This document shows positions 1,819 to 36,796 of a stretch of DNA of 64,000 nucleotides, piece by piece. Location: the IMG/VR virus record IMGVR_UViG_3300034651_000084; one strand, given 5' to 3'. Position 1 is the first letter of the stretch. Every line of letters starts with the position of its first letter. The stretch is from a virus. A program made the translations under genes and the position numbers. The notes below the pieces were generated by a model. It saw only the letters and a list, made by a program, of their open reading frames with translations, did not search any database and was not told the DNA's origin.

Positions 1819-2105
1819 GACAAAAAACCGAGATACAGAGTAGGCACAATCTAAAGATACTTCCAGAGTATTTTCAAGCAATTGCTAAAGGAATTAAAAC
1901 TTTTGAAATACGTAAGAATGATAGAAATTATCAAATAGGTGATCAAATCACGCTCATGGAGCACAACGGCCGGAATTACACTGGCCGTGAGATTATTGGC
2001 TCAATCACTTATATCACAGACTATGAGCAAAAAGAGGGTTATATCGTATTTGGGTTTAGAAAGTGGAGCATTAACACGCAGAGACAACAAAGACCGGATT
2101 ATTAG
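1815..2105 (+). CDS. ASCH/DUF3850 (PUA-like) domain protein
   Basis: HNLKILPEYFQAIAKGIKTFEIRKNDRNYQIGD motif. Confidence 0.85.
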   Translation: MRQKTEIQSRHNLKILPEYFQAIAKGIKTFEIRKNDRNYQIGDQITLMEHNGRNYTGREIIGSITYITDYEQKEGYIVFGFRKWSINTQRQQRPDY

Positions 2106-2119
2106 GGGGCTGAAACAGA

Positions 2120-2275
2120 ATGAAAGAAAAAATAACTCAATTTATCAAGCAATTACTCTGCAAGCCGCATCGATTTGATACGCCGAGACATAAATACAGA
2201 CTTGGAAACATCAAACACGGTTATGAGTGCAGCAAGTGTAAGAAAGTACGGTGGTTGGGATTAATAAAATTGTGA
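2120..2275 (+). CDS. Small Zn-ribbon-like phage protein, 51 aa (absent from ORF track)
   Basis: MKEKITQFIKQLLCKPH...YECSKCKKVRWLGLIKL; an upstream AGGGGG could act as RBS. Confidence 0.6.
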   Translation: MKEKITQFIKQLLCKPHRFDTPRHKYRLGNIKHGYECSKCKKVRWLGLIKL

Positions 2276-2634
2276 TTGATAGTCCTTTGCCATCGCTTAA
2301 CGAGTACACAAACGAGAATCGCAAACATTATCACAAGGGTGCACAAGTAAAAAAACGCGCCACATACATTTGCCGCATATTTATCCAGAAGGCAATCAAC
2401 GAAGGATTAGAAGTTCCAAAATTACCAATGGACTTGAAATTTACCTGGTACGTAAAAAACAGACGGCAGGATAAGGATAATATTTCATTTGCAAAGAAAT
2501 TCATTCTCGATGGTATGGTTGATGCTCGATTGATTAAAAACGACGGATGGGGTCAAATTGGCGATTTTACAGACACGTTTAAAGTAGATAAAAATGAGCG
2601 AGTGGAAATTGAATTGATTGGGGGAAAAGAATGA
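2251..2634 (+). CDS. rusA: RusA-like Holliday junction resolvase
   Basis: LPSLNEY...RRQDKDNISFAKKFILDGMV...IKNDGW carries the RusA acidic catalytic pattern. Confidence 0.8.
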   Translation: MVGINKIVIDSPLPSLNEYTNENRKHYHKGAQVKKRATYICRIFIQKAINEGLEVPKLPMDLKFTWYVKNRRQDKDNISFAKKFILDGMVDARLIKNDGWGQIGDFTDTFKVDKNERVEIELIGGKE

Positions 2635-2783
2635 ACCAATATACAGCGTTAGTAATTGTTAGTGTCGCTTTAATTCTATTGACTGGCTTTACATTTTATT
2701 TAACAGGTAGTGCGTGGTCTTTTGCAATATTATTGTTAATTGTCGGAATGAGTGCATCAGAGGATGGTGGAGATAGTGACTAA
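2631..2783 (+). CDS. Small membrane protein, 50 aa
   Basis: MNQYTALVIVSVALILLTGFTFYLTGSAWSFAILLLIVG: two hydrophobic segments; GGGGGA RBS; overlaps the previous stop. Confidence 0.65.
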   Translation: MNQYTALVIVSVALILLTGFTFYLTGSAWSFAILLLIVGMSASEDGGDSD

Positions 2784-2925
2784 TTACAAAAATGAACAAC
2801 AAAAGCCGAAGTCTGCACCCAAACACGAATTAAATGACAAACAAGCTAAATACCTTAAAGAACTCGAAGAACGCAACAAACGCGAAATTAGTACGTATAG
2901 GGGTGGCTATAATGTTGGCGATTGA
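2776..2925 (+). CDS. Hypothetical protein, 49 aa
   Basis: GTG start after GGAG; MTNYKNEQQKPKSAPKHELNDKQAKYLKELEERNKR; coupled to its neighbours. Confidence 0.5.
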   Translation: MTNYKNEQQKPKSAPKHELNDKQAKYLKELEERNKREISTYRGGYNVGD

Positions 2926-3118
2926 TTGGTATAGAGCGCACCAAAATTTAGATGCACTGAACGAAATGAAACGAGATAGCGCAATAAAGTATATTCACAT
3001 AGTTAATGATTTTGTAGGCTTTTATGCGGACAACCCCCGCTATGAAGAAGTGGTAAAGTTTGATTTGCGTTTTGAAGTTACAGGAACGTTTGATGACTTA
3101 TGCAGTAAATATTTTTAG
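2912..3118 (+). CDS. Hypothetical phage protein (probable start 2912)
   Basis: ATG at 2912 preceded by AGGGGTG; fits operon tiling better than 2834. Confidence 0.55.
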   Translation: MLAIDWYRAHQNLDALNEMKRDSAIKYIHIVNDFVGFYADNPRYEEVVKFDLRFEVTGTFDDLCSKYF

Positions 3119-3129
3119 GAGCATACGCG

Positions 3130-3261
3130 ATGAGAAAACTTAAGAAAGGCGACAAATACCGTCCGATTGTGCACATAAAGAAAGTTAAAAAGGACGTGCC
3201 GACTGTCTTGCAGGTAAGCGGGCGAAGATATGTGTTAGAGCACAAGCACCAACATAAGTGA
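3130..3261 (+). CDS. Small basic phage protein, 43 aa
   Basis: AGGAG RBS then MRKLKKGDKYRPIVHIKKVKKDVPTVLQVSGRRYVLEH. Confidence 0.6.
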   Translation: MRKLKKGDKYRPIVHIKKVKKDVPTVLQVSGRRYVLEHKHQHK

Positions 3262-3275
3262 TTGGAGTTGATTAA

Positions 3276-3683
3276 GTGGTTAGTTATAAACAAGCAGAAA
3301 ATAAGCTAAAAGATTATTATTCGGGGAAGCACCGAAATAAAATACTTAATCGGCGATTGCAGCTTAGATACCCTTACTACTTTTTTCCGAGCGATGAAAA
3401 TATTGGCGGTGGCAAAACCAATAGCACATCCGATCCAACGGAAAGTGTCGCCAGGAAAAGAGCAGATGATGCAAAATTAAATAAGTTGCAACGTGAAGAA
3501 GAGGCCATTAAAAATTTTTTGAAGCACTTGGATTTAAAAACTGAACAAATATTGTATTATTTTTATAAAAAGAATAATACATGGGGAGAAGTTAGCGAAG
3601 TTGTTGGTTATTCAATCACTGCTTGTAAAAATAAAAGAAGCGATTCAATTAAAAAACTGGCTGAATGGCTGAAATTAGAGTGA
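3276..3683 (+). CDS. ArpU/RinA-family late transcription activator
   Basis: Position just before the packaging genes; C-terminal sigma-region-4-like HTH (TWGEVSEVVGYSITACKNKR). Confidence 0.8.
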   Translation: MVSYKQAENKLKDYYSGKHRNKILNRRLQLRYPYYFFPSDENIGGGKTNSTSDPTESVARKRADDAKLNKLQREEEAIKNFLKHLDLKTEQILYYFYKKNNTWGEVSEVVGYSITACKNKRSDSIKKLAEWLKLE

Positions 3684-3684
3684 A

Positions 3685-3738
3685 TGTCTCTTTAGTGTCC
3701 GATTAGTGTCTCTTTTGTCTGTTTTTCGGTGGTATAAT
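3685..3738 (+). promoter_or_regulatory. Late promoter with phased activator-binding repeats
   Basis: TGTC at 3685, 3696 and 3707 (11-bp period; TTAGTGTC twice, TGTCTCTTT twice), then TGGTATAAT at about 3730-3738 with no consensus -35. Confidence 0.6.
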
Positions 3739-3830
3739 GCTAATATGAAGATATTATATAATTGGCTAGGTAAGTTCCTTTTTTGGTTGTTTGTCAAAAT
3801 TTCTCCTTAGAAAATAACCTAGCCTTTTAT

Positions 3831-3903
3831 TGGAATATAGCTCAGTTGGTAGAGCACTGCACTGTTAATGCAGAGGTCACAGGTTCGAGCCCCGTTGTTC
3901 CAG
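3831..3903 (+). tRNA. tRNA-Asn (GTT)
   Basis: Acceptor TGGAATA/TGTTCCA, D arm GCTCAGTTGGTAGAGC, anticodon arm CTGCA-CTGTTAA-TGCAG, T loop GGTTCGAGCC; one A-C mismatch in the T stem; CCA not encoded. Confidence 0.93.
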
Positions 3904-4062
3904 TTGAGAGGAATCTCAAGGCCGCGGAAACGGTCAAAAATTTATACTATTTCTTAGTCTTATTTCGCAATATGTTTTACTCACTCATATTGTGATTGCT
4001 CATCAAGTGGATGTAAAACACAATTTGAATGAACGTCTGGGAATACGTTCAATGTCTAAAGG

Positions 4063-4096
4063 AAAAGCCATTCGTGTGGAAGCGGGTGGCTTTTTG
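4063..4096 (+). terminator. Intrinsic terminator-like hairpin upstream of terS
   Basis: AAAAGCCATTCG...CGGGTGGCTTTTT. Confidence 0.55.
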
Positions 4097-4124
4097 TATT
4101 ACATAAAATTATAAAGGTGGTGGG

Positions 4125-4619
4125 ATGATGGCGAGAGGCAAATATCATGATTGGTTAACAGAAGAAGGGCTTTTGAAACTCGAAGGCTGGGCTCGTGATG
4201 GTCTCACGGACGAACAAATAGCACAAAATATTGGCATTGCTGTTGCGACTTTGTACGTTTGGAAAAATAAGTATCCAGAGATATCAGAGTCCCTAAAAAG
4301 GGGAAAAGAAGTTGTTGACCGACAAGTTGAAAATGCATTGCTTAAAAGAGCACTGGGTTATCAATACTTTGAGGTTACTTATGAATTGGTCGAAGAAGAA
4401 GACGGAATGACCGTCGAACGAGTGACTAAACGTGTTTTGAAAGAGGAAAAACCAGACACGACGGCCGCTATCTTCTGGCTTAAAAACCGCAAACCAACCG
4501 AGTGGAGAGACAAACAACATACTGAAATTAGTGGTGGTATCGATGTTAATAACCCATTCGAGGACTTAACCACCGAGGAACTCCGAAAGTTAGCAAAGAG
4601 TGAAAAAAATGGTAGTTGA
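4125..4619 (+). CDS. terS: Terminase small subunit
   Basis: N-terminal HTH (LTDEQIAQNIGIAVATLYVWK), DTTAAIFWLKNRKP motif, directly upstream of TerL. Confidence 0.9.
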   Translation: MMARGKYHDWLTEEGLLKLEGWARDGLTDEQIAQNIGIAVATLYVWKNKYPEISESLKRGKEVVDRQVENALLKRALGYQYFEVTYELVEEEDGMTVERVTKRVLKEEKPDTTAAIFWLKNRKPTEWRDKQHTEISGGIDVNNPFEDLTTEELRKLAKSEKNGS

Positions 4620-6000: not shown

Positions 6001-7524
6001 TTGAGAGAGGTGATTAAACTGAGTTATAGAGACTTATTAAGTGATGATCCAACGAAAGTTGCTGAAGCTTTAGACAAAGCAATACCCGAGGACAAGACAT
6101 CAGAAGTCAAAAAGAAAGCACGAATTGGCGAAAAGTACTATAAATTTGAACATGATATTTTAGATAACCGTATTTTTTATATTGATGATAACGGGCAGCT
6201 GCAAGAAGATAAATACGCATCAAACGTTAAAATACCCCATCCGTTCTTTACGGAACAAGTCGACCAAAAAGTTCAGTATGTGTTGTCTGAGCCGATTGAA
6301 TTAATTGTTCCAGATGATAAAGAACACGAAGGGCTGCAAGACAAACTTGATGACTATTATGACGAAAACATGCAAGTATTTTTACAAGAGGCATTAGAAG
6401 GCGCTTCTAAAAAGGGACTAGAGTATGTTTATGCAAGAACAAATGCTGATGATCGACTATCTTTCCAAGTATCAGACAGTCTAAAGACATTTGAAGTCTA
6501 TGATGAAAATGGTGAAAGACAGCGAACGGTACGTTATTACAATAAAGATATTGAAAAAGATGATGAATTAAAATCAATCGAACACGCAGAAGTTTGGGAT
6601 GATGAACAGGTTTATTATTTCGTAAAAGAAGAGAACAAATACACACTCGATACTTCTAGAGAAATGAATCCAAGAAAACATGTTTTAGCTGTCGATAGTC
6701 AAGGTACTGTATTAGGGCGTTCTTATGAACGAAATCCATTTTATCGATTAAGCAACAATACGCATGAAACAACTGATTTAGAGCCAATTAAAGCGTTGAT
6801 TGATGACTATGATTTAATGGCTGCATTTTTATCAAATAACTTACAAGATTTTTCAGAAGCTATTTATGTAGTGAAAGGTTTTAAAGGTGATGATTTAACA
6901 AGTTTACGCCAAAACGTGAAATCCAAGAAAACGGTAGGCGTTGGGACTGATGGCGATTTAGATATTCGTACCGTAGAAATCCCTCATGAAGCACGAAAAA
7001 CAAAACTAGAGATTGACAAGGATGCTATTTATAAGTTTGGAATGGCGGTCGATACATCACAAATCGGTCATTCAAGCGGAACAGTTACCAATGTAGCAAT
7101 CAAAGCTGGTTATTCGTTACTTGACATGAAAGCGAACAAAGCAGAGGTACGCTTACGCTCCATGCTCAAATGGATGAACGAAATGATTATTGATGACATT
7201 AATCGACGACATAACACAAACTATATGGCCGATAACATTGAAATCACGATTACACGAACAACACCAGTCAACGAAAATGACATTGCGACCAATGAAAAAA
7301 TTCAAGCAGAAACACAACAGCTGTATATTCAAACAATTATTGCAGCTGCTCCTCGTATTGGTGATGAAGAGACATTGAAGCTTATTTGCGAGCAATTTGA
7401 ACTTGATTGGGAAGAGGTGCAAGACAAGCTAGAAAAACAAGAATATACGTCAGGTTTACAAGATGACACGGATCCACCAGAAATGGGTGATGAAGTAGAT
7501 GGCGAAATCGAGGCAACTGAGTAA
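6001..7524 (+). CDS. Portal protein, SPP1 gp6-like
   Basis: 507 aa after TerL; ALIDDYD and TNVAIKAGYSLLDMKA motifs. Start uncertain (TTG 6001, GTG 6010). Confidence 0.92.
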   Translation: MREVIKLSYRDLLSDDPTKVAEALDKAIPEDKTSEVKKKARIGEKYYKFEHDILDNRIFYIDDNGQLQEDKYASNVKIPHPFFTEQVDQKVQYVLSEPIELIVPDDKEHEGLQDKLDDYYDENMQVFLQEALEGASKKGLEYVYARTNADDRLSFQVSDSLKTFEVYDENGERQRTVRYYNKDIEKDDELKSIEHAEVWDDEQVYYFVKEENKYTLDTSREMNPRKHVLAVDSQGTVLGRSYERNPFYRLSNNTHETTDLEPIKALIDDYDLMAAFLSNNLQDFSEAIYVVKGFKGDDLTSLRQNVKSKKTVGVGTDGDLDIRTVEIPHEARKTKLEIDKDAIYKFGMAVDTSQIGHSSGTVTNVAIKAGYSLLDMKANKAEVRLRSMLKWMNEMIIDDINRRHNTNYMADNIEITITRTTPVNENDIATNEKIQAETQQLYIQTIIAAAPRIGDEETLKLICEQFELDWEEVQDKLEKQEYTSGLQDDTDPPEMGDEVDGEIEATE

Positions 7525-9211
7525 ATGGGAAAAAGAAGTTAGGCGGTTGTCCATTAATCGATTTAAAGAGACGGACAACGTGTTATTTAACCACTACAAA
7601 GATGCATTAAGAGAAATGAAAGTTGAACTCAAACGCTACATTGACACTTATGAGGAATTATCTTTCTCAAAACGTTTAGAAGCGGAACGTCAAATACAAG
7701 TGGCTAATCGAATTGATGAAATACTCATTGATTTGAATAAGTGGAGCGAATCTGACATTCGCAAGAGTATCGAACAAGAAGCGAACTTTGGGTATTACGG
7801 TTCATGGTATGAGTTAGAGGGCGCTGAAAATATCCAGTTAGATTTTGCGATGCTTCCAGAGAATTATATCGAGGAACTCACGAACAAACCGGTGGCCGGA
7901 AAGAGACTGTCAACACGCTTATATGATTATCGCAATCAATTAGCCGAAAGAACAACAACGGCTTTGATTGATGGTGCAGCAAAAGGGCGAGGGTATCGGA
8001 AAATCGCAAAAGAAATTGGTGAATTAACTGAAGCGAATTATAAACAGGCGTTACGTATTGCTCGCACTGAAGGTGGACGTGCTCAATCAACCGCCAAGCA
8101 AAGAGCTTATAAAGAAGCGCAGGATAAAGGTGTAGAAATCGAAAAGCAATGGATGTCTGTGTTGGATGATAGGACAAGACACAATCATCAAATTCTAGAT
8201 GGGCAAACAGTCGACATAGAAGAAGAATTTACTTCTCCTAGTGGCGCTAAAGCTCAGGGACCCAGGTTATTCGGCAACGCTGGTGATGACATCAACTGTA
8301 GATGTACTACAATCACGATTGTTAATGGTTTATCCCCGGAATTAAGACGAGACAATGAAACTGGTGAAGTTATTCCTTTCCAAACTTACACAGAATGGGC
8401 GGAAAACAAAGGCATTGTCCCTGAGGCGATTGAATCGGGACCAACAATCAAAATAAACGATACTATTCGAGATAAGATAACTGCCACTCAGTTTGACGAG
8501 ATCACAGAGTTATTAGGTAGAGCTCCCGACAGTATTCAAAAGATGTGGAATAAATATTCTGATAATATGAATTGGGGAAGCACTTCAGACGGAAACTATT
8601 TTAGCGCACAAACTGAATATGCTTTTATAAAACCAAGCGACTTAAAGAAAGACAACTTAGAAGATTATAAAGTATTATTTCACGAGATGGCTCATAATAT
8701 TGATAGTGTGGCTGGTTCCCAGCAATACGGCAATCGATTTAACTTTGCTTCATCTCATTATAGTGATGAATTTACGCGATTATTAAAAAAAGATGCTGAT
8801 GACTATATTAAAAAACAGCAAAAAAGAATGGGAGAATTAGTTAAGGAACAATGGGATGACGAAGGCGCCGGTGGTTATCAAAAATTTGTTCTTGACGGCC
8901 AAGAAATGTTGCTGCCCAAAAAAATCAAGAAAAGAGATGCAAAGTCTTTTGTTGCGAACGAATTAAGCGAAAAAAGTTTCAAAGATATAAGCGCTGTAGG
9001 AGATGTTTTTGAAGGTGCTACAGGTGTGTCTTCTAAAGGTGGGCACGGCAAGAAGTATTGGAAAAATAAAGATATGTTGCCGCGTGAAGCCTTTGCTCAT
9101 ATGACACAAACCACTATTAACAATGAACAATCGCTCAGAGAGATGAAACATTACTTTCCTAATGCATATGAAGAGTATTTAAATGTAGTTAAAATTATAA
9201 ACGAAATTTAA
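7499..9211 (+). CDS. MuF / SPP1 gp7-like minor head protein with C-terminal HExxH metallopeptidase-like extension
   Basis: RIARTEGGRAQ, DDRTRHNH and INCRC MuF motifs, then about 270 aa containing LFHEMAHNID and REAFAH. Confidence 0.88.
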   Translation: MAKSRQLSKWEKEVRRLSINRFKETDNVLFNHYKDALREMKVELKRYIDTYEELSFSKRLEAERQIQVANRIDEILIDLNKWSESDIRKSIEQEANFGYYGSWYELEGAENIQLDFAMLPENYIEELTNKPVAGKRLSTRLYDYRNQLAERTTTALIDGAAKGRGYRKIAKEIGELTEANYKQALRIARTEGGRAQSTAKQRAYKEAQDKGVEIEKQWMSVLDDRTRHNHQILDGQTVDIEEEFTSPSGAKAQGPRLFGNAGDDINCRCTTITIVNGLSPELRRDNETGEVIPFQTYTEWAENKGIVPEAIESGPTIKINDTIRDKITATQFDEITELLGRAPDSIQKMWNKYSDNMNWGSTSDGNYFSAQTEYAFIKPSDLKKDNLEDYKVLFHEMAHNIDSVAGSQQYGNRFNFASSHYSDEFTRLLKKDADDYIKKQQKRMGELVKEQWDDEGAGGYQKFVLDGQEMLLPKKIKKRDAKSFVANELSEKSFKDISAVGDVFEGATGVSSKGGHGKKYWKNKDMLPREAFAHMTQTTINNEQSLREMKHYFPNAYEEYLNVVKIINEI

Positions 9212-22193: not shown

Positions 22194-24032
22194 ATGAGTT
22201 TTAATAAGTTTAATAAAGTAGAAATCATTTTAAGGGACGCAAATGAACCGATTTTAAGAAAGCTCTTTGCCAAAGAAGGTGACTACAATGGCCGTGAATT
22301 GCAAGTAAAAATTATTGATGGGGGTGCAGTAAAAGATTTAAGTAACTTATCTTTGCGGCTGTATTGGAAACACCTAAATATGAAAAATCAAGGGATTGAA
22401 CCGTTTGATGCGACTGATGCAAGCAAAGGCGTTTTTGAAGTAACATACCCTAATAATATGATGAATGAGGGGAATGTGCTTGTTTGGATACAAATATATA
22501 ACAACGACACATTGATAGGGACTCCTAATACAATCATTGAAGTCGAGGGGTCTGGATTTGATGCAGTAGCCGCTGTAGCGAGCGATGATTATAAAGCATT
22601 GAACGATGCCTTATTGCGAGTAGAACACATTGAAGGCAATGAACAAGACCGTCAAGAAACCTTTGAAACGAATGAAACATCCAGAGAAAATACGTTCGAA
22701 AGTAACGAGGACACACGCCAAAGTAATGAAAATACCCGCATCAGTAACGAAAACACTCGCAAATCAAATGAGATTGATCGTGAACAAGCCGAGAGCCAAC
22801 GGCAATCTGATTACCAACAAGCAGAATCGGACAGAACCAGTGATTATGAACAAGCTGAAAACAATCGAGATAGTCAGTATCAAACAGCAGAAAATGCACG
22901 AGAATCTGAATTTGAACAACGCGCGAACGCTATGGAAGAACAATATCCGGAACGCTTAAATAACATTGAAGAAGAATTAAGAGCGCCAATCATGGGTGTC
23001 GAATGGGACAAATCATCCAATCCGACCATGACACGCATAGGAATTTCTGAGGGGTTAATCGCGAATATTGGCATTGGCAATGAAAGAGTACGCAATGATT
23101 TTGATAACATGCCAATTTATCGAGAAATTATTCGAGAAGTCGACAACTTGGGAAATGTGTTTGTGCGTATACCGAAGTTTTACATTAGAAAAACAATTGC
23201 ATCAGATTTTTACCGTTTAGAAATCTCAAAAGAGAAACTAAGCGGTTTTTATTTGCCTTATTTGTTTTGGGATTTTGATAAAAACCAAGAACTAAATTAT
23301 GCATATTATGGAGCACACGAAGCGAGTTTATCGTCAGATGGTCAGCGATTAGAATCAAAACCAGGCGTACAACCGCTAGCTAGTAACAACATTGTCCAGT
23401 TTAGAGATTTTGCAAGAGCAAATGGTAAGGGTTATCAACAAAATGATGTGCACGCTATTGATGTTTTACGAGCGCTTTTTCATGTTGAGTTCGCAACATT
23501 GCATTCACAATCGATTCATCCAGGATTTACTTCTGGAAATAGCGAGCCCGGCATTGCTGGAACAACAGATGACGTCGTTGCCTCAAGCGGTGCGGTGGGT
23601 ACTGGTGGAAGCGACCCGTTTATGTACCGCGGAATTGAAAATCCTTGGGGGTCTGTTTATGAATGGGTTGACGGAATTAACGTTAACAACCATCAAGCTT
23701 GGGTGGCTAAAAACGCAGAAGATTATACAAGTAATGTTTTTACATCGCCTTACGAACAACTAGGCTACGTAAATCACAATTCAAACACATGGGTTACTGA
23801 AATGGGATACGACGACACGTTGCCATTTGCCGAATTCCCGGTGGCTGGCGGCGGTAGTACTAATACTTATTACGCAGACCACTACTATCAAAACTCGGGG
23901 CAGCGTGTTGCTCGGTTCGGTGGTTACTGGTCGACTGGCTCGGCTGCTGGCCTTTCGTTATGGAACCTGTCCGCTGGCTCGGCGCGTGCGAACTCGTACG
24001 TCGGCGGGCGGCTTCTTAAAAAGCCTCTTTGA
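22194..24032 (+). CDS. Receptor-binding protein and DGR target: BppU-like N-terminus, coiled-coil stalk, C-terminal CLec (Mtd/FGE-sulfatase-like) domain
   Basis: GDYNGRELQVKI N-terminus; 7/11-residue repeats; GIENPWGSVYEWVDG and RFGGYW...GGRLLK CLec motifs; VR at the 3' end. Confidence 0.9.
   Translation: MSFNKFNKVEIILRDANEPILRKLFAKEGDYNGRELQVKIIDGGAVKDLSNLSLRLYWKHLNMKNQGIEPFDATDASKGVFEVTYPNNMMNEGNVLVWIQIYNNDTLIGTPNTIIEVEGSGFDAVAAVASDDYKALNDALLRVEHIEGNEQDRQETFETNETSRENTFESNEDTRQSNENTRISNENTRKSNEIDREQAESQRQSDYQQAESDRTSDYEQAENNRDSQYQTAENARESEFEQRANAMEEQYPERLNNIEEELRAPIMGVEWDKSSNPTMTRIGISEGLIANIGIGNERVRNDFDNMPIYREIIREVDNLGNVFVRIPKFYIRKTIASDFYRLEISKEKLSGFYLPYLFWDFDKNQELNYAYYGAHEASLSSDGQRLESKPGVQPLASNNIVQFRDFARANGKGYQQNDVHAIDVLRALFHVEFATLHSQSIHPGFTSGNSEPGIAGTTDDVVASSGAVGTGGSDPFMYRGIENPWGSVYEWVDGINVNNHQAWVAKNAEDYTSNVFTSPYEQLGYVNHNSNTWVTEMGYDDTLPFAEFPVAGGGSTNTYYADHYYQNSGQRVARFGGYWSTGSAAGLSLWNLSAGSARANSYVGGRLLKKPL
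23908..24011 (+). repeat. DGR variable repeat (VR)
   Basis: 104 nt matching 24113-24216 with 16 mismatches, all at TR adenines. Confidence 0.97.
24002..24032 (+). promoter_or_regulatory. G/C run and IMH (initiation of mutagenic homing) region
   Basis: An 11-nt G/C run (CGGCGGGCGGC) then TTCTTAAAAAG; the TR counterpart CAGACTCTTATT shows the first non-adenine differences. Confidence 0.7.
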
Positions 24033-24039
24033 GGGGGTT

Positions 24040-24061
24040 TTAGGGGGACACATCCCCCTAA
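24040..24061. other. DGR target-recognition DNA hairpin/cruciform
   Basis: Perfect 9-bp stem TTAGGGGGA / TCCCCCTAA with a 4-nt loop CACA, 7 nt after the target stop. Confidence 0.85.
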
Positions 24062-24093
24062 TAGAACTTAAACAAAAAACAACTTTCAAAAAT

Positions 24094-24365
24094 AGGGCTA
24101 TGGAGTGCGCGCTTGCTCAGTTCGGTGGTAACTGGTCGAATGGCTCGAATGCTGGCCTTTCGTTATGGAACCTGAACAATGGCTCGACGAATGCGAACTC
24201 GAACATCGGCAGGCAGACTCTTATTAATAGCATAATTTTATATTTATATTGCACTCTATAATCCTTACCCCTTGGTAAAAATTAGACCGTAAAGAGCAAG
24301 GTGTAGTAGGTTAACTCTCGAACCACCTTGAGGTTAATAAGAAAATTCAGAAAGACTGTGAGTAA
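24094..24365 (+). ncRNA. Putative DGR template RNA (5' flank, TR, spacer)
   Basis: AGGGCTATGGAGTGC (24094-24108) pairs with GCACTCTATAATCCT (24251-24265), enclosing the TR. Confidence 0.6.
24113..24216 (+). repeat. DGR template repeat (TR)
   Basis: 24 adenines, 18 of them in nine AAC/AAT codons; non-coding copy between target and RT. Confidence 0.97.
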
Positions 24366-25457
24366 ATGAAACGCATTGGTTATATTTATGAAAATATTTA
24401 TGACATAGACAATATTAAAGAAGCGATTTACAAAGCATCTGAAGAAAAGCGAGAACATGAACACGTTAAGCAAGTGTTAAGCAACATTGAGCATTACGCA
24501 TATCGAGTTCACTTGCTAATCAAGAACAAAGAATATGTTCCAACGAAGCCAAAAATAAAAACAATCCAAGATACTTCAAATGGAAAGGTTCGTGTTATTT
24601 ATCAACCAAATTTTTTCCCAGATCAAATTATCCATTGGTCGTTAATGTTACAAATCCAACCAATTATTATGCGTGGTATGTACGCTTATAGTTGTGGAAG
24701 TGTTCCGAATCGTGGAACAACATACGCACAAGATACTATTCGCAAGTGGTTAGACAATGATATTAGAAACACAAAATACTGCTTAAAAATGGATATTAAG
24801 AAGTTTTATCCGTCAATTTCAAACGAACTTTTGAAAAGGATGTTTGAGCGCAAGATAAAAGATAAAGATTGTCTTTGGCTAATCAATACTATTATTGACC
24901 ACAATGATGGTCAACCGATTGGATTTTATACAAGCCAGTGGTTTGCGAATTTCTTTTTAGAAGGAATGGACCATTATATAAAAGAGAAACTAGGTGTTAA
25001 GTATTATGTTCGATATGTGGACGATTTGGTGTTGTTTGGCAGCAATAAACGGAAATTGCACCGCGTAAGAAAAGAAGTAGATCGTTATACAAAAGGTATT
25101 GAATTGAAAATAAAAGATAACTGGCAAGTCTTTCGGGTGGATAAAAGAGATCTAGACTTTTTGGGTGTGCGCTTTTATCGCAACAAAACAACCCTCAGAA
25201 GTCGAAACGCTTTGCGAATTCGTAGGCGTGTCAAAAAGATTAAAAAGAAAGGCTACTTGAATGATAAAGATGCTGCGGCAATCTTGTCATATTGGGGGTG
25301 GATTAAGCGCACAGATAGTTATAGCTTTTACCATAAATACGTGAAGCCGGTAGTACCTATTCATTTAGCCAGAAAGGTTGTGAGTATAAATGCCAAAATT
25401 CGGAATTATAACCGATGGAATCTTGAACACAAAAGAAAATATGTCGCCCGGCTATAA
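24366..25457 (+). CDS. DGR reverse transcriptase
   Basis: LKMDIKKFYPSI, GQPIGFYTSQWFAN (DGR-type SQ motif) and YVRYVDD; no maturase X or endonuclease domain. Confidence 0.97.
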   Translation: MKRIGYIYENIYDIDNIKEAIYKASEEKREHEHVKQVLSNIEHYAYRVHLLIKNKEYVPTKPKIKTIQDTSNGKVRVIYQPNFFPDQIIHWSLMLQIQPIIMRGMYAYSCGSVPNRGTTYAQDTIRKWLDNDIRNTKYCLKMDIKKFYPSISNELLKRMFERKIKDKDCLWLINTIIDHNDGQPIGFYTSQWFANFFLEGMDHYIKEKLGVKYYVRYVDDLVLFGSNKRKLHRVRKEVDRYTKGIELKIKDNWQVFRVDKRDLDFLGVRFYRNKTTLRSRNALRIRRRVKKIKKKGYLNDKDAAAILSYWGWIKRTDSYSFYHKYVKPVVPIHLARKVVSINAKIRNYNRWNLEHKRKYVARL

Positions 25458-25635
25458 ACCATTACATTATGAAGAAATACCCAAAGATTTTGACCAACAA
25501 ACGCACTATATTGTAGAAAAAGACCCAGTCGACAAGCAAGACCACATTTTTATAGCCATCGATATCAAGGAGCTAGAAATAGATGATGAAGAAAACTTTG
25601 AATACTGGGAAGAGGGTCACGTTGGAAATCATTAG
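25390..25635 (+). CDS. Small acidic phage protein (tail-module accessory); overlaps the RT 3' end by 68 nt
   Basis: 81-aa ORF; position typical of small genes after receptor-binding proteins. Confidence 0.7.
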   Translation: MPKFGIITDGILNTKENMSPGYKPLHYEEIPKDFDQQTHYIVEKDPVDKQDHIFIAIDIKELEIDDEENFEYWEEGHVGNH

Positions 25636-25750
25636 CGAATTATTTATAACCATTGATAAGCAGAACGAACTGATTAAAGAATTAACAGAAAAAGTGATTG
25701 AGCAAGATCAAATTATTGAGCAAATGTTTGACGAAAAAGCTGCAGAGTAA
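25622..25750 (+). CDS. Small coiled-coil protein, 42 aa
   Basis: GAAGAGGG RBS, TTG start, MEIISELFITIDKQNELIKELTEKVIEQDQIIEQMFDEKAAE. Confidence 0.65.
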   Translation: MEIISELFITIDKQNELIKELTEKVIEQDQIIEQMFDEKAAE

Positions 25751-32654: not shown

Positions 32655-32903
32655 ATGAGTAAACCGTTAATAACAATGAAAGTTGAAGTCTTAGAGCTAA
32701 AAGCAGTAGTTAACTTTATTACTGGCATTCAGCTAGGGGAGCTAACTATAGAAGAATTAGAGATTTTAAACAACACGCTAAAATTTCAGAGTGTAAATGT
32801 AAATAGAGAGATGGATAGACGAAAAAAAAGCTGCCCAAGACGGCAATCTCGGACAGCACATAAACAAACTTTACTAAGGAGAGTGTACCAGAAATGGAAA
32901 TAA
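32655..32903 (+). CDS. Hypothetical protein
   Basis: AAGGGG RBS; 82 aa. Confidence 0.55.
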   Translation: MSKPLITMKVEVLELKAVVNFITGIQLGELTIEELEILNNTLKFQSVNVNREMDRRKKSCPRRQSRTAHKQTLLRRVYQKWK

Positions 32904-34906
32904 AATTAAATAGTTTAAAAATTCGAAATTTTAAAGGAATACGAGATTACACACTTGAACCAAATGGCGATTCAATCAATGTGTTCGGAGATAATGCAAC
33001 TGGAAAAACAACCTTATACGATGCTTTTCTGTGGGTGTTGTTTGGCAAAAACAGTGAAGACCAGGCAACATTTGACTGGAAGCCATTGGATGACCAAGGG
33101 AACGAAATTAATCATCTTGAAACAGAAGTCATCGCAGAAATCGAAGTGGACGGAAAAGTAACAAAATTATCTCGCATGACGGAAGAAAAATGGACTAAGA
33201 AGCGCGGTAGCGCCAACGAAGTGTTTGATGGACACACTACAACATACAAGCTAGATGATCTAACAGTTAAAAAGAAAGAATATGATGACTATCTTTCAGA
33301 CTTGATTGATGAAGACCTATTTAAGTTACTAACAAACGTGAGTTACTTCCCAGAAAAATTGAGCTGGAAAGACCGTAGACAGACCTTAATTGACATGGTT
33401 GGTGACATCACAGATGACGATGTGATTGCAGAAAACGATGAACTGGAGCCGCTCAAAGAGTTAATCGAAGAAAGACCAGCGGACGAGTTAAAACAGCTCA
33501 CAGCGCAGAAAATGAAGCAGATAAACAAAGATATTAAAGCGTTACCAGACCGTATCGATGAAGTTGATAGATCCCTGCCGGACATCTCAGACTTTAACAA
33601 AGATGACCTCTTGGAAGATAAAGAGTTTTACGAAAATCGAATTGAAAAGCTGCAAGAACAAATCGCAGAAACTAAAAATTCAGATGATGTTGTGAAACTC
33701 AAAAATGATATAGCTGATTTAAGAGTACATTATAAAGAAATGAAGTTGGAATATGAAGAAAAACAAGAAAAAGAATTAGAGGACACATTAAACGAAAAAG
33801 CTGCACTTGAGAAAGACATACGCGAACTAAACACAACCATTAATAATCTTGAAGATGATGCTGAGGAAACTAGACGAGGTGCCGAAAGAAAACAGAAAGA
33901 AGTCGCTGGTTTAGAAGCCGACAGAGAAAAATTGCGTGAACAGTTTTATGAAATTCAACAAGAACAATTACCAACCTTTGACGAGCACAGAACCACTTGC
34001 CCGACTTGTGGCCAAGATTTACCAGAAGAACAGCTGCTGAAAGTGCGCCACGATTACGAACAAGAAGTTAAGACTTTCAATACTGAGAAAGGAAAAGAAT
34101 TAGAACAGAACAAGGAAAAAGGTATTGAAATCACCGAACAAATTAACAAGTTACAAGATGAAATAAACGATTTAAAAAATAGTTATGATACAGATTTCGA
34201 GAAAATTTCAGAGTATGAAAAAAGTAAGAAAGAAGTACAAGAAAAGTTAGAAAAGGTCGAAGCTGAAGAAGAGAAAATAAGAAGCAATCAAAATCCGTTT
34301 AGTGAAACAAAAAAAGCACAAGAGATTACAAAAGAAGCCGAAAAATTACAATCACAAATCGATTCTGGACAGTCCAATGTTGATGAAGATGTTGAGGAAT
34401 TAAATAAAAAAGTTGTTGATTCTAAGGCCGAAATAAAAGAGCTTGATGGCTATTTAAACGATATTGATTTCCATGCTCGACAAAATAAACGCAAAGAAGA
34501 ATTGATTGCACAAGAACAGAACTTATCTGTTGAATACGGTGAACTAGAGCAGCGATTACATCTCTTAGAAGAGTTTACACGTACCAAGGTTAACTTGCTC
34601 ACAGACACCATAAATGACCGTTTTAAACTGGTTAAATTTAAGTTATTTGAGGAACAAATAAACGGCGGGCTAAACGAGGTGTGTGAGGTTACTGTTAACG
34701 GTGCGAATTACTCAACAGGCTTAAATAATGCAATGAAAATCAATGCAGGAATCGATATTGTCGGGACTCTTATGGACTACTACGATAAAAAAGTTCCGTT
34801 GTGGATTGACAACTCCGAAAGTGTAAACGAATTAATCGATATTGATACACAACTGATTACATTATCTGTAAGTAATCACAAGAGCTTGAGAGTAGAGGTG
34901 GCTTAG
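32894..34906 (+). CDS. Rad50/SbcC-like SMC-type ATPase
   Basis: Walker A GDNATGKTT, long coiled coils, central CPTC hook, Walker B LWIDNSES. Confidence 0.88.
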   Translation: MEIKLNSLKIRNFKGIRDYTLEPNGDSINVFGDNATGKTTLYDAFLWVLFGKNSEDQATFDWKPLDDQGNEINHLETEVIAEIEVDGKVTKLSRMTEEKWTKKRGSANEVFDGHTTTYKLDDLTVKKKEYDDYLSDLIDEDLFKLLTNVSYFPEKLSWKDRRQTLIDMVGDITDDDVIAENDELEPLKELIEERPADELKQLTAQKMKQINKDIKALPDRIDEVDRSLPDISDFNKDDLLEDKEFYENRIEKLQEQIAETKNSDDVVKLKNDIADLRVHYKEMKLEYEEKQEKELEDTLNEKAALEKDIRELNTTINNLEDDAEETRRGAERKQKEVAGLEADREKLREQFYEIQQEQLPTFDEHRTTCPTCGQDLPEEQLLKVRHDYEQEVKTFNTEKGKELEQNKEKGIEITEQINKLQDEINDLKNSYDTDFEKISEYEKSKKEVQEKLEKVEAEEEKIRSNQNPFSETKKAQEITKEAEKLQSQIDSGQSNVDEDVEELNKKVVDSKAEIKELDGYLNDIDFHARQNKRKEELIAQEQNLSVEYGELEQRLHLLEEFTRTKVNLLTDTINDRFKLVKFKLFEEQINGGLNEVCEVTVNGANYSTGLNNAMKINAGIDIVGTLMDYYDKKVPLWIDNSESVNELIDIDTQLITLSVSNHKSLRVEVA

Positions 34907-35161
34907 ATGGAAGTTGGTGTTAACGAAATTATATGCCCGCTCTGTCGTCACAAGGACTCTGATTATGATTATGCTGTTGATGAGGGTCCTATGGAAATGG
35001 AGTGGGTATGCAGTCGATGTGAAGGAGAATTCATTTTGCAATCAGATATCTACAATATCTATTGGGAATTACAGTCTATGACTTTCGAGGAAAAGGAAAC
35101 TAAAGAGCGCGAAGAACAAAAAAGAGCAGAACTATATCGAAAAAAAGCTAGAGGAGAATAA
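34907..35161 (+). CDS. Zn-finger protein
   Basis: CPLC...CSRC. Confidence 0.65.
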   Translation: MEVGVNEIICPLCRHKDSDYDYAVDEGPMEMEWVCSRCEGEFILQSDIYNIYWELQSMTFEEKETKEREEQKRAELYRKKARGE

Positions 35162-35163
35162 AA

Positions 35164-36090
35164 ATGACAAATAATCAATTAGCAAACAATAATGGTGGGA
35201 ACAGTCTAAGAGGGTTATTGAAAACCCCAGCAATCCAAAATCAATTAAATAATGTTTTAAAAGATAAATCCTCACAATTTGCATCAAGTTTAATTACTTT
35301 AGCAAGTAACGATCCACAGCTTAATGATGCAGAGCCAATGTCAATCATCTCTGGAGCATTACAAGCTGCACAATTAAGTCTGCCGCTTGAAAAACAGTTT
35401 GGGTTTGTCTATTTAATCCCTTTTAATACCAAGAACAAGCAAACAAATCAATGGGAAAAGAAAGCACAATTTATCCTTGGTTATAAAGGTTATATCCAGC
35501 TAGCTCAACGTAGCGGACAATATACCAAAATTAACGTTGGAAATGTTTATGAAGGGCAGCTAAAAAGTTGGAATCCTTTCAAGGAAGAATTGGAGTTTGA
35601 CCCTCAAGCAAAAGCTAGTAACGAAGTGATTGGATACTTTGGTTATTTCAGATTACTCAATGGCTTTGAAAAAACAGTTTACTGGACGAAAGAACAAATT
35701 GAAGATCACCGCATCCAAAATAACAAAGGAAAAAATAAGCAACAATTATCAGGTGTTTGGAAATCAAATTATGATGCAATGGCTCAAAAGACCGTAATCA
35801 GAAGTATGCTAAGTCGTTGGGGAATTTTAAGCACCGAAATGCAACAAGCAATGCTAGCTGATGTAGAACCAGAGTATGAAGACACAGAAACACAAGTCAG
35901 AAGAGATGTTAGCGAGAACGCAAACAAAGAAGTGGTTGATTTTGAACCAACGAACGAGAACACAACCAACAATAACGAAAGTCCACTTACTGATGAAGAT
36001 ATCGAAACATTAAAAGAAGGTAAACCAGAAGCAGCTGACGAACAAGGAACGATGTTTGATAACTTAAACGACCTAGACCCAGGCTATTAA
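35164..36090 (+). CDS. recT: RecT-family single-strand annealing protein
   Basis: AQLSLPLEKQFGFVYLIPF, QFILGYKGYIQLAQRSGQY and YDAMAQKTVIR motifs. Confidence 0.93.
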   Translation: MTNNQLANNNGGNSLRGLLKTPAIQNQLNNVLKDKSSQFASSLITLASNDPQLNDAEPMSIISGALQAAQLSLPLEKQFGFVYLIPFNTKNKQTNQWEKKAQFILGYKGYIQLAQRSGQYTKINVGNVYEGQLKSWNPFKEELEFDPQAKASNEVIGYFGYFRLLNGFEKTVYWTKEQIEDHRIQNNKGKNKQQLSGVWKSNYDAMAQKTVIRSMLSRWGILSTEMQQAMLADVEPEYEDTETQVRRDVSENANKEVVDFEPTNENTTNNNESPLTDEDIETLKEGKPEAADEQGTMFDNLNDLDPGY

Positions 36091-36091
36091 T

Positions 36092-36796
36092 ATGATTGAG
36101 ATTAAAGCATTTGGATCCAGCAGCGCAGGCAATAGCTATCTCCTGCAAGACGGAGATAGAGCGCTCCTGCTAGAAGCTGGGATAAGACCAAAAAAAATGT
36201 CAATCAATTGGAGCAAAGTCGATGCGCTACTCATTACACACGAACATTTAGACCATTCTAGATATGCGAAAGACTATTTAAAACGTGGCGCATTCAGTAT
36301 TTACTGCACTAAAGGCACAGCTAAAAATTTGCAAGGGGTGGCTGATCACAGAGTGATGGGTTGCGATTATTTAAAACAATTTACAGTGAAGGGCTGGCAC
36401 ATTATGGCCTTTAAGGTGGAACATGACACAGCTGAACCTAGTGGCTTTTTGATACAGACACCAAGCGGCAAAAAAGTATTATTTGCAACAGACACGTATT
36501 ACATCAGATACAAATTTAACGATATTACGCACATGATGGTCGAATGCAATTACTCGATGGACATCATCAATCAAAATCTTCAAGAGGGCAGAATCCACAA
36601 GTCTTTGAGAAACCGAGTGATTAAAAGTCACTTTGAATTAGACAACGTGATTAATTTTCTGGAAAGCAATGATTTAAGTCAATTGGAAGAAGTGCACTTA
36701 TTGCACTTGAGTGACACTAACAGCAACGCAGCAGAGTTTAAGCAAAAAATACAAGCGGCCACCGGGGTTCCGGTTTATGTCGCAGAAGGGGTATAA
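36092..36796 (+). CDS. MBL-fold metallo-hydrolase (probable 5' exonuclease)
   Basis: GSSSAGNSY, THEHLDH, HD, TDT, ECNY and HLS motifs. Confidence 0.88.
   Translation: MIEIKAFGSSSAGNSYLLQDGDRALLLEAGIRPKKMSINWSKVDALLITHEHLDHSRYAKDYLKRGAFSIYCTKGTAKNLQGVADHRVMGCDYLKQFTVKGWHIMAFKVEHDTAEPSGFLIQTPSGKKVLFATDTYYIRYKFNDITHMMVECNYSMDIINQNLQEGRIHKSLRNRVIKSHFELDNVINFLESNDLSQLEEVHLLHLSDTNSNAAEFKQKIQAATGVPVYVAEGV

Follow-up and report, generated by a model that had tools for sequence, protein, structure and literature searches.

A DGR without Avd in a temperate siphophage of Bacilli: possible support of reverse transcription by an RT-18 spacer RNA

How might a DGR copy its template repeat into mutagenized cDNA when neither Avd nor any other accessory gene accompanies its reverse transcriptase (RT)? 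The locus described here raises this question in a compact form, as only 333 nt (24033-24365) separate the stop codon of the DGR target gene from the start of the RT gene, a distance given in an earlier note on this DNA and confirmed by our own coordinates. The absence of Avd is in itself an ordinary, known and common state. In a survey of 372 DGRs, avd was present in 74% (Wu et al., NAR 46:11, PMC5758913). Architecture A, a TR-RT core with no accessory gene, made up about 29% of DGRs, and one whole RT lineage was without avd, which was also not found elsewhere in those genomes (PMC5758913). How reverse transcription proceeds in the roughly one quarter of DGRs that have no Avd has been open since that survey of 2017-18. 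To our knowledge, all mechanistic and structural work on DGRs so far has been carried out on the RT-Avd pair of BPP-1. The Avd-less layout is therefore not what is new at this locus; what is new is a spacer RNA of the RT-18 family which is tied to the TR by two covarying helices.

The phage and its DGR cassette

The 64,000-nt window, i.e., the whole stretch of viral DNA that was analysed, repeats a circular genome of 37,907 bp (37% GC) 1.7 times over, and the copies agree at every position. The genome is that of a temperate siphophage of Bacilli. It encodes proteins for lysogeny and regulation (integrase, S24 repressor, Cro-like protein, and Rha), for replication and recombination (replisome organiser, RecT, and RusA), for the virion (terminase, SPP1-type portal, MuF, scaffold, tape measure, Dit, and Tal), and for lysis (Dp-1 holin and amidase). 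The nearest relatives of its RT are found in prophages of Bacilli, namely of Alkalihalobacillus, Atopostipes, Pseudogracilibacillus, Bacillus benzoevorans, and Levilactobacillus, and a megablast search of the locus against phages returned zero matches. The sequence occurs in a single public run, labelled as a plant metagenome, from which one assembled contig with zero variants was available. Two features elsewhere in the genome may be recorded here. Rfam (67.6 bits) and ARAGORN identify a tRNA-Asn (GTT) at 3830-3904, flanked by the genes for the ArpU-like regulator and the small terminase, and the MuF-family head protein (7499-9211) has a C-terminal extension with a weak match to the metallopeptidase family Peptidase_M90.

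The features of the cassette are collected in Table 1. Residues 317-611 of the target match the tail protein family phrog_5302 (E 6e-56), and the target stop codon, TGA, occupies 24030-24032. Over their 111 nt, VR and TR differ at 18 positions; 17 of these are TR adenines, all of them falling in codon position 1 or 2, and one is of another kind. Because the differences fall in this way, we regard the cassette as a real DGR. In keeping with this assignment, the VR at the C-terminus of the target is followed by an IMH and a GC-rich hairpin. The fold of the region around the hairpin (24019-24113) has a z of -2.0. The hairpin holds the same position as the IMH-adjacent inverted repeat of BPP-1, and we infer for it, by analogy, the role described there (PMC3240598).

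Table 1. Features of the DGR locus, in coordinates of the 64,000-nt window
Feature	Position	Strand	Remarks
DGR target gene, 612-aa tail/receptor-binding protein	22194..24032	+	Pfam BppU_N at N-terminus; tail-protein C-terminal domain
VR	23908-24018	+	Inside target C-terminus; ends 12 nt short of the stop
GC-rich 9-bp hairpin, CACA loop	24040..24061	+	From sequence; 8 nt past target stop
Clamp helix, 5' strand	24094..24109	+	Ends 3 nt ahead of TR; partner 24250-24265
TR, 111 nt	24113..24223	+	From VR/TR alignment
TR 3' end, UCUUAUUAAU	24219..24228	+	Pairs with RT-18 tail; putative template side of template:primer duplex
Clamp helix, 3' strand	24250..24265	+	Directly 5' of RT-18
RT-18 RNA (Rfam RF03021)	24266..24344	+	70.8 bits (gathering score 41.3); E 8e-11
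DGR reverse transcriptase, 363 aa	24366..25457	+	RVT_1 (Pfam); bRT-like throughout
81-aa acidic protein	25390..25635	+	Overlaps RT 3' end by 68 nt; conserved family
55-aa acidic helical protein	25583..25750	+	Conserved in 11 related loci

The RT matches the BPP-1 enzyme bRT (8ub7) in sequence with an E of 6e-24, and IGFYTSQ stands opposite IGSLTSQ of bRT. We take [I/L/V]GxxxSQ to be the DGR-type RT motif. The AF2 model of the RT has a pLDDT of 93, and its residues 1-333 superpose on 8ub7_A (bRT 2-328) with a Z of 35.3 and an rmsd of 1.8 A over 324 residues. Beyond this shared fold, the RT ends in a long basic helix (aa 332-359; 25342-25457) which is absent from bRT, with conservation reaching up to about residue 350. 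The last 22 RT codons are shared, in a different frame, with the beginning of the 81-aa ORF.

We sampled 80 IMG/VR loci, with RTs 35-67% identical to this one, and about 20 prophage loci. In nearly all of them, the target stop lies about 230-370 nt ahead of the RT and the TR/VR differences are adenine-specific, i.e., the target-TR-RT layout is a property of the clade. The hosts of this clade are largely Bacilli and Clostridia, with some Bacteroidota. The closest isolated phages are Lactobacillus phage LBR48 (NC_027990) and Butyrivibrio phages Arawn/Idris, whose RTs are 51% and 43% identical, respectively. They have the same target-TR-RT-18-RT layout upstream of lysis genes, likewise without Avd, but their targets and small downstream genes are not the same as those found here, and no similarity was found at the DNA level. 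Among the architectures of the survey, the element has the layout of A1, with the same TR-RT core, one upstream target bearing a C-terminal VR, and an association with phages (Wu et al., PMC5758913). Architecture A1/Lineage 3 is likewise without avd, HRDC, MSL, and CH1 and shows few non-adenine substitutions (PMC5758913); going by gene content, the element may belong to this avd-free lineage. The structure of the RNA and a link to RT-18 are not described in that work (PMC5758913).

To look for accessory proteins in the genome itself, we ran hmmscan against all of Pfam-A with ORFs of at least 90 aa from both strands, non-nested ORFs of at least 50 aa, and all large genes. None of the ORFs of the 37,907-bp genome matched bAvd (PF22296), 23S_rRNA_IVP/Avd-like (PF05635), HRDC, or MutS, whereas BPP-1 Avd, as a positive control in the same library, matched PF22296 with an E of 7e-36. 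The earlier note, which had seen no Avd-type ORF in the 37.9-kb unit and had named Avd/bAvd, HRDC, and MutS-like families as those to search for, is borne out by this result. Nor did we find a candidate for the CH1 (acidic, 160-169 aa), HRDC, or MSL accessories beside the RT, where the flanking ORFs are only 81 and 55 aa long, CH1 being judged by its description.

The spacer RNA and its two long-range pairings

The earlier note had the 333-nt gap filled by the hairpin, TR, and spacer. The hairpin and the TR stand as described, but comparison of related sequences indicates that the spacer is a conserved folded RNA and not filler, as it contains RT-18. The match covers the full Rfam model (positions 1-84 of 84) and ends 21 nt 5' of the RT start, placing the RNA upstream of the RT gene as in the family definition. 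P1 occupies 24266-24277, the conserved UAGUAG and CGAA lie in the central stems, and the 3' tail (24333-24342) reads GUUAAUAAGA. Of 20 relatives sampled, 17, among them LBR48, have RT-18 or the related RT-17 (RF03020) immediately before the RT. We built a model, R1, from 16 of these 17; about 95 loci yielded 78 matches, each of them next to the RT on its 5' side and on the same strand. Within the 16 relatives, 85.9% of the cells in the RT-18 stems are paired, as against 67% in shuffles, and 54 cells are changed on both sides, as against 17 in shuffles; slid controls were far lower. The least supported stem is P2, with 66% of its cells paired.

The original description of the RT-1 to RT-19 RNAs did not go beyond motifs in the neighbourhood of RT genes (Weinberg et al., NAR 45:10811, PMC5737381). 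RT-10 is the TR-RT spacer of BPP-1, whereas for RT-18 the authors gave no function and only speculated that it is part of retrons or DGRs (PMC5737381). We found no later literature assigning RT-18 a role. The locus and its relatives thus probably give this orphan Rfam family a context and, by analogy with BPP-1, a proposed function in Avd-less DGRs. We would like to note that RT-17 and RT-18 match the same position in different subclades (534-634 in locus L074, for example) and that both models match locus L023 at 3956-4046. The two have the P1 hairpin, the UAGUAG box, and the CGAA box in common, and while no Rfam clan joins the pair, they look like variants of one RNA.

Relative to RF03021 as published, the RNA found here has two further pairings that lie outside the Rfam model, along with its link to Avd-less DGRs. 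The first of these pairings joins the RT-18 tail to the 3' end of the TR (24333-24342 with 24219-24228, 10 bp). This helix is present in 45 loci in at least 12 sequence versions, such as UCUUAUUA:UAAUAAGA, UUUGUUGC:GCAACAAA, UUUUAAUC:GAUUAAAA, and CUCUCAUUA:UAAUGAGAA. Pairings of tail and TR end reach 8 bp in 64% of native combinations, compared to 6% of non-native combinations from mismatched loci and 3% with shuffled tails. The native mean energy of the helix was reached in 0 of 5000 permutations, a statistic that ignores phylogenetic relatedness. In 27 of the 45 loci, the helix begins 1-2 nt 3' of the last mutated adenine, and the tail base at that point is usually A. The helix has 2 nt in common with the 3' strand of P2; it and P2 may exclude each other, or there may be no P2 at all.

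The second pairing, which we call the clamp, encloses the TR, with 11 contiguous bp between its two strands, or 16 with one mismatch. Equivalents of 8-16 bp with very different sequences are present in the same 45 loci, and pairings of at least 7 bp are formed by 93% of native combinations versus 23% of non-native ones. As judged from these comparisons, both long-range helices covary across the clade. Between the end of the TR and the 3' strand of the clamp lies an AU-rich stretch of about 7-50 nt across loci, 26 nt here, which in several loci is too short for an 11-bp Avd-binding stem-loop.

A possible RNA-based mechanism

Both pairings have counterparts in BPP-1. There, TR 117-129 forms a duplex with Sp 47-56, priming takes place from Sp A56 at TR G117, and synthesis is halted where sequence upstream of the TR is paired with sequence downstream of it; experiments have established this TR:Sp duplex, the adenosine that primes in cis, and the stop duplex (bioRxiv 10.1101/2023.10.23.563531). 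Directly after the BPP-1 TR, an 11-bp stem-loop binds the Avd pentamer, and Avd helps to position the template:primer duplex (bioRxiv 10.1101/2023.10.23.563531). When the element is set beside the BPP-1 DGR (mtd-avd-TR-Sp-brt; PDB 8ub7), the likenesses consist of the RT fold, the adenine-specific mutagenesis, the hairpin after the VR, a duplex of the TR 3' end with downstream RNA beside the last mutable base, and a helix joining sequences upstream and downstream of the TR. The differences are that there is no Avd here and no room for the Avd-binding stem-loop, that the RNA is RT-18 whereas that of BPP-1 is RT-10, that the primer strand comes only after the stems and the clamp's 3' strand, and that the RT has its added C-terminal helix. 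By this analogy, the element would work like that of BPP-1 although its RNA is not of the RT-10 family, and the sites of priming, start, and stop given below are predictions of the same kind.

A transcript of about 24094-24345 can fold with the clamp round the TR, followed by RT-18, and with the RT-18 tail paired to the TR end. In such a fold, the tail would be the primer strand, and A24342, the counterpart of Sp A56, would be the priming nucleotide. The first templated base would be C24218, as read from the TR:Sp duplex of BPP-1, and the cDNA would extend 5'-ward through the TR with mis-incorporation at adenines, until the clamp halts synthesis in the way of the BPP-1 'cPRT stop' duplex. Positioning of the duplex in the active site, a task of Avd in BPP-1, would fall to the RT-18 stems, perhaps with the help of the basic C-terminal helix of the RT. 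We would assign the small genes downstream of the RT to the tail-fibre/lysis module rather than to the retroelement.

We consider it fairly probable that the element is an intact accessory-less DGR in which Avd is not needed because the template RNA itself carries the required architecture, and we count in favour of this reading that the RT is intact and bRT-like and superposes over its full length, with one added helix. We advance with more reserve, as something that could about as easily fail as hold, the specific proposal that RT-18 and the two pairings outside it form a self-contained scaffold for priming and positioning, on which a bRT-like RT performs cis-primed, adenine-mutagenic synthesis without a protein partner. 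The locus and its relatives make this a testable model, with defined RNA bounds (about 24094-24345), two predicted nucleotides (A24342 and C24218), and two helices. Should it be true, it would describe a two-component DGR of RT and RNA, with the parts of the RNA ordered unlike those of BPP-1, and would account for the workings of the large Avd-less fraction of DGRs. If RT and RNA suffice, the Gram-positive phages would also offer a smaller diversification module for engineering.

Alternative explanations for the missing Avd

The earlier note had suggested that the RT works alone, with support from RNA only, or with a helper from the host or from an unrecognised small phage protein. RT-18 and the two covarying helices make support by RNA likely, and a small-protein helper is unlikely for the reasons set out further below. 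A dependence on the host deserves attention first. It is conceivable, though in our judgement rather unlikely, that the RT needs a host factor other than Avd, e.g., an RNA chaperone or nucleic-acid-binding protein, and that the cassette is minimal only by borrowing from the cell. The concentration of the clade in Bacilli and Clostridia, with some Bacteroidota, would suit such a dependence; for no DGR is it understood how the cDNA enters the VR, and the authors of the survey likewise left the mechanism open (PMC5758913). Against it, the RNA already has covarying equivalents of both BPP-1 features for priming and stopping, and the spread of the hosts over several phyla disfavours a narrow host factor.

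A host-encoded Avd would be a related case. In the five host genomes of the closest prophage relatives, nothing matched PF22296 above the cut-off (best E 0.015), and because no Avd homologue stands above the cut-off in any of these five, a host-encoded Avd is unlikely. The sole host match to PF05635 above the cut-off (G004:C58:242-558, 87 bits) comes from Alkalihalobacillus sp. BA299, where the contig measures 779 bp and two stops break up the match. It may be an ORF of a 23S rRNA intervening sequence rather than a DGR Avd.

A further possibility is that a new DGR accessory has taken the place of Avd, namely the 81-aa protein or else the 55-aa protein encoded behind it, with translation coupled to that of the RT through the 68-nt overlap. 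The earlier note gave the genes after the RT as 81 aa and 42 aa; the first length is correct, but the second gene encodes 55 aa, with AAGGAG 9 nt upstream of its ATG at 25583, and the 42-aa version is the same frame read from a TTG at 25622. By its sequence, the 55-aa protein is too short and too acidic for an Avd. The 81-aa protein is the more serious candidate. The ORF is real, and its N-terminus is conserved within the overlap while the RT tail there is not. It represents a conserved family of which 104 relatives were found in databases, although Pfam and PHROG gave no match. All close relatives show the overlap with the RT 3' end, and of 6 contexts sampled, 4 have the gene behind an RVT_1 gene despite differing genes further downstream (scaffold/capsid, portal, HNH, lysis).

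Nevertheless, we find an accessory role for these proteins improbable. With its acidic character (pI 4.5) and all-beta fold, the 81-aa protein resembles none of the known nucleic-acid-binding accessories; its AF2 model (pLDDT 83.6) consists of five strands and an acidic tail. The best structural matches, which are weak, are phage tail assembly chaperone and DUF4376 proteins in BFVD (E 1.5e-3 to 0.3, TM 0.36-0.56). Foldseek against the PDB gave nothing meaningful (best E 1.0), the Atlas gave no usable match, and tblastn against GenBank phages gave zero matches. In RT subclades with the same RT-18 RNA and layout, the position of the 81-aa protein is held by non-homologous genes. The protein is also retained where the RT is not. 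In a decayed relative (L084; GCA_046128275.1 contig, locus 2087-4198), the target, the TR (about 3544-3669), and RT-18 (3705-3783) are intact, only RT residues 18-60 are left (3850-3978), and an intact homologue of the 81-aa protein follows directly. In four biogas and other metagenome contigs (L085-L088), a 53-aa relative of the protein occurs with neither an RT nor a target homologue, downstream of a DUF6273 protein and two small ORFs. Taken together, being all-beta, replaced in other subclades, kept without the RT, and found without a DGR, the 81-aa protein does not behave as the unrecognised helper that the earlier note had envisaged. Its position and its retention without the RT fit a link to tail fibres, and it is probably tail-fibre associated and not an accessory of the RT.

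A different RT subclade (L022, L024, L049, L050, L056, and L058) has a gene of 121-223 aa that overlaps the 3' end of its RT, and the product has the C-terminal motif …LL..TD…YRQALRDIPQQ.GFPY.V.WP. We take this motif to be typical of tail-fibre assembly proteins. This fits a TR-RT unit that sits between a fibre gene and its chaperone. We also considered a single downstream accessory common to the whole clade and dropped it, as hhalign comparisons among eight families of the first gene after the RT gave probabilities mostly below 5% and at most 35%, without convincing homology. A related-locus search with a 114-aa protein gave one poor locus only.

Far less probable still is a highly divergent Avd, or another four-helix-bundle helper, whose gene lies elsewhere in the phage and escaped the profiles. 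The concern is a reasonable one, as Avd sequences are very poorly conserved (PMC5758913), and bAvd itself, which belongs to PF22296, has no match to PF05635 in a six-frame search of BPP-1. However, both Avd families of Pfam took part in every hmmscan, with the positive control given above, and each basic ORF of 90-140 aa is otherwise assigned, to RusA, the ArpU-like regulator, or DUF3850/ASCH; a 102-aa basic ORF has an alpha/beta model (Atlas). Avd is absent from the relatives as well. PF05635 found none in ten related phage records, several of them complete, and PF22296, with which the relatives were searched too and which recovered BPP-1 at an E of 2e-37, found none in phage LBR48, phage Arawn, or two 100%-complete relatives.

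It is hardly credible that the element is a decaying or inactive DGR whose missing Avd reflects gene loss and not an Avd-free mechanism, since, although decay is known in the clade from the locus that has lost most of its RT, the RT here is intact and close to bRT, 17 of the 18 VR/TR differences are at adenines in the first two codon positions, and dozens of divergent loci have the same gene-free layout, again with differences specific to adenines.

With regard to the later step of cDNA integration, the phage carries a recombination module (32894-36796) consisting of an SMC/AAA-like ATPase (670 aa), a zinc-ribbon ORF, RecT (35164-36090), and a metallo-beta-lactamase-fold protein. In engineered DGR systems, RecT is employed to install the cDNA. 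It is pure speculation, but the phage's own RecT may aid the integration of cDNA into the VR.
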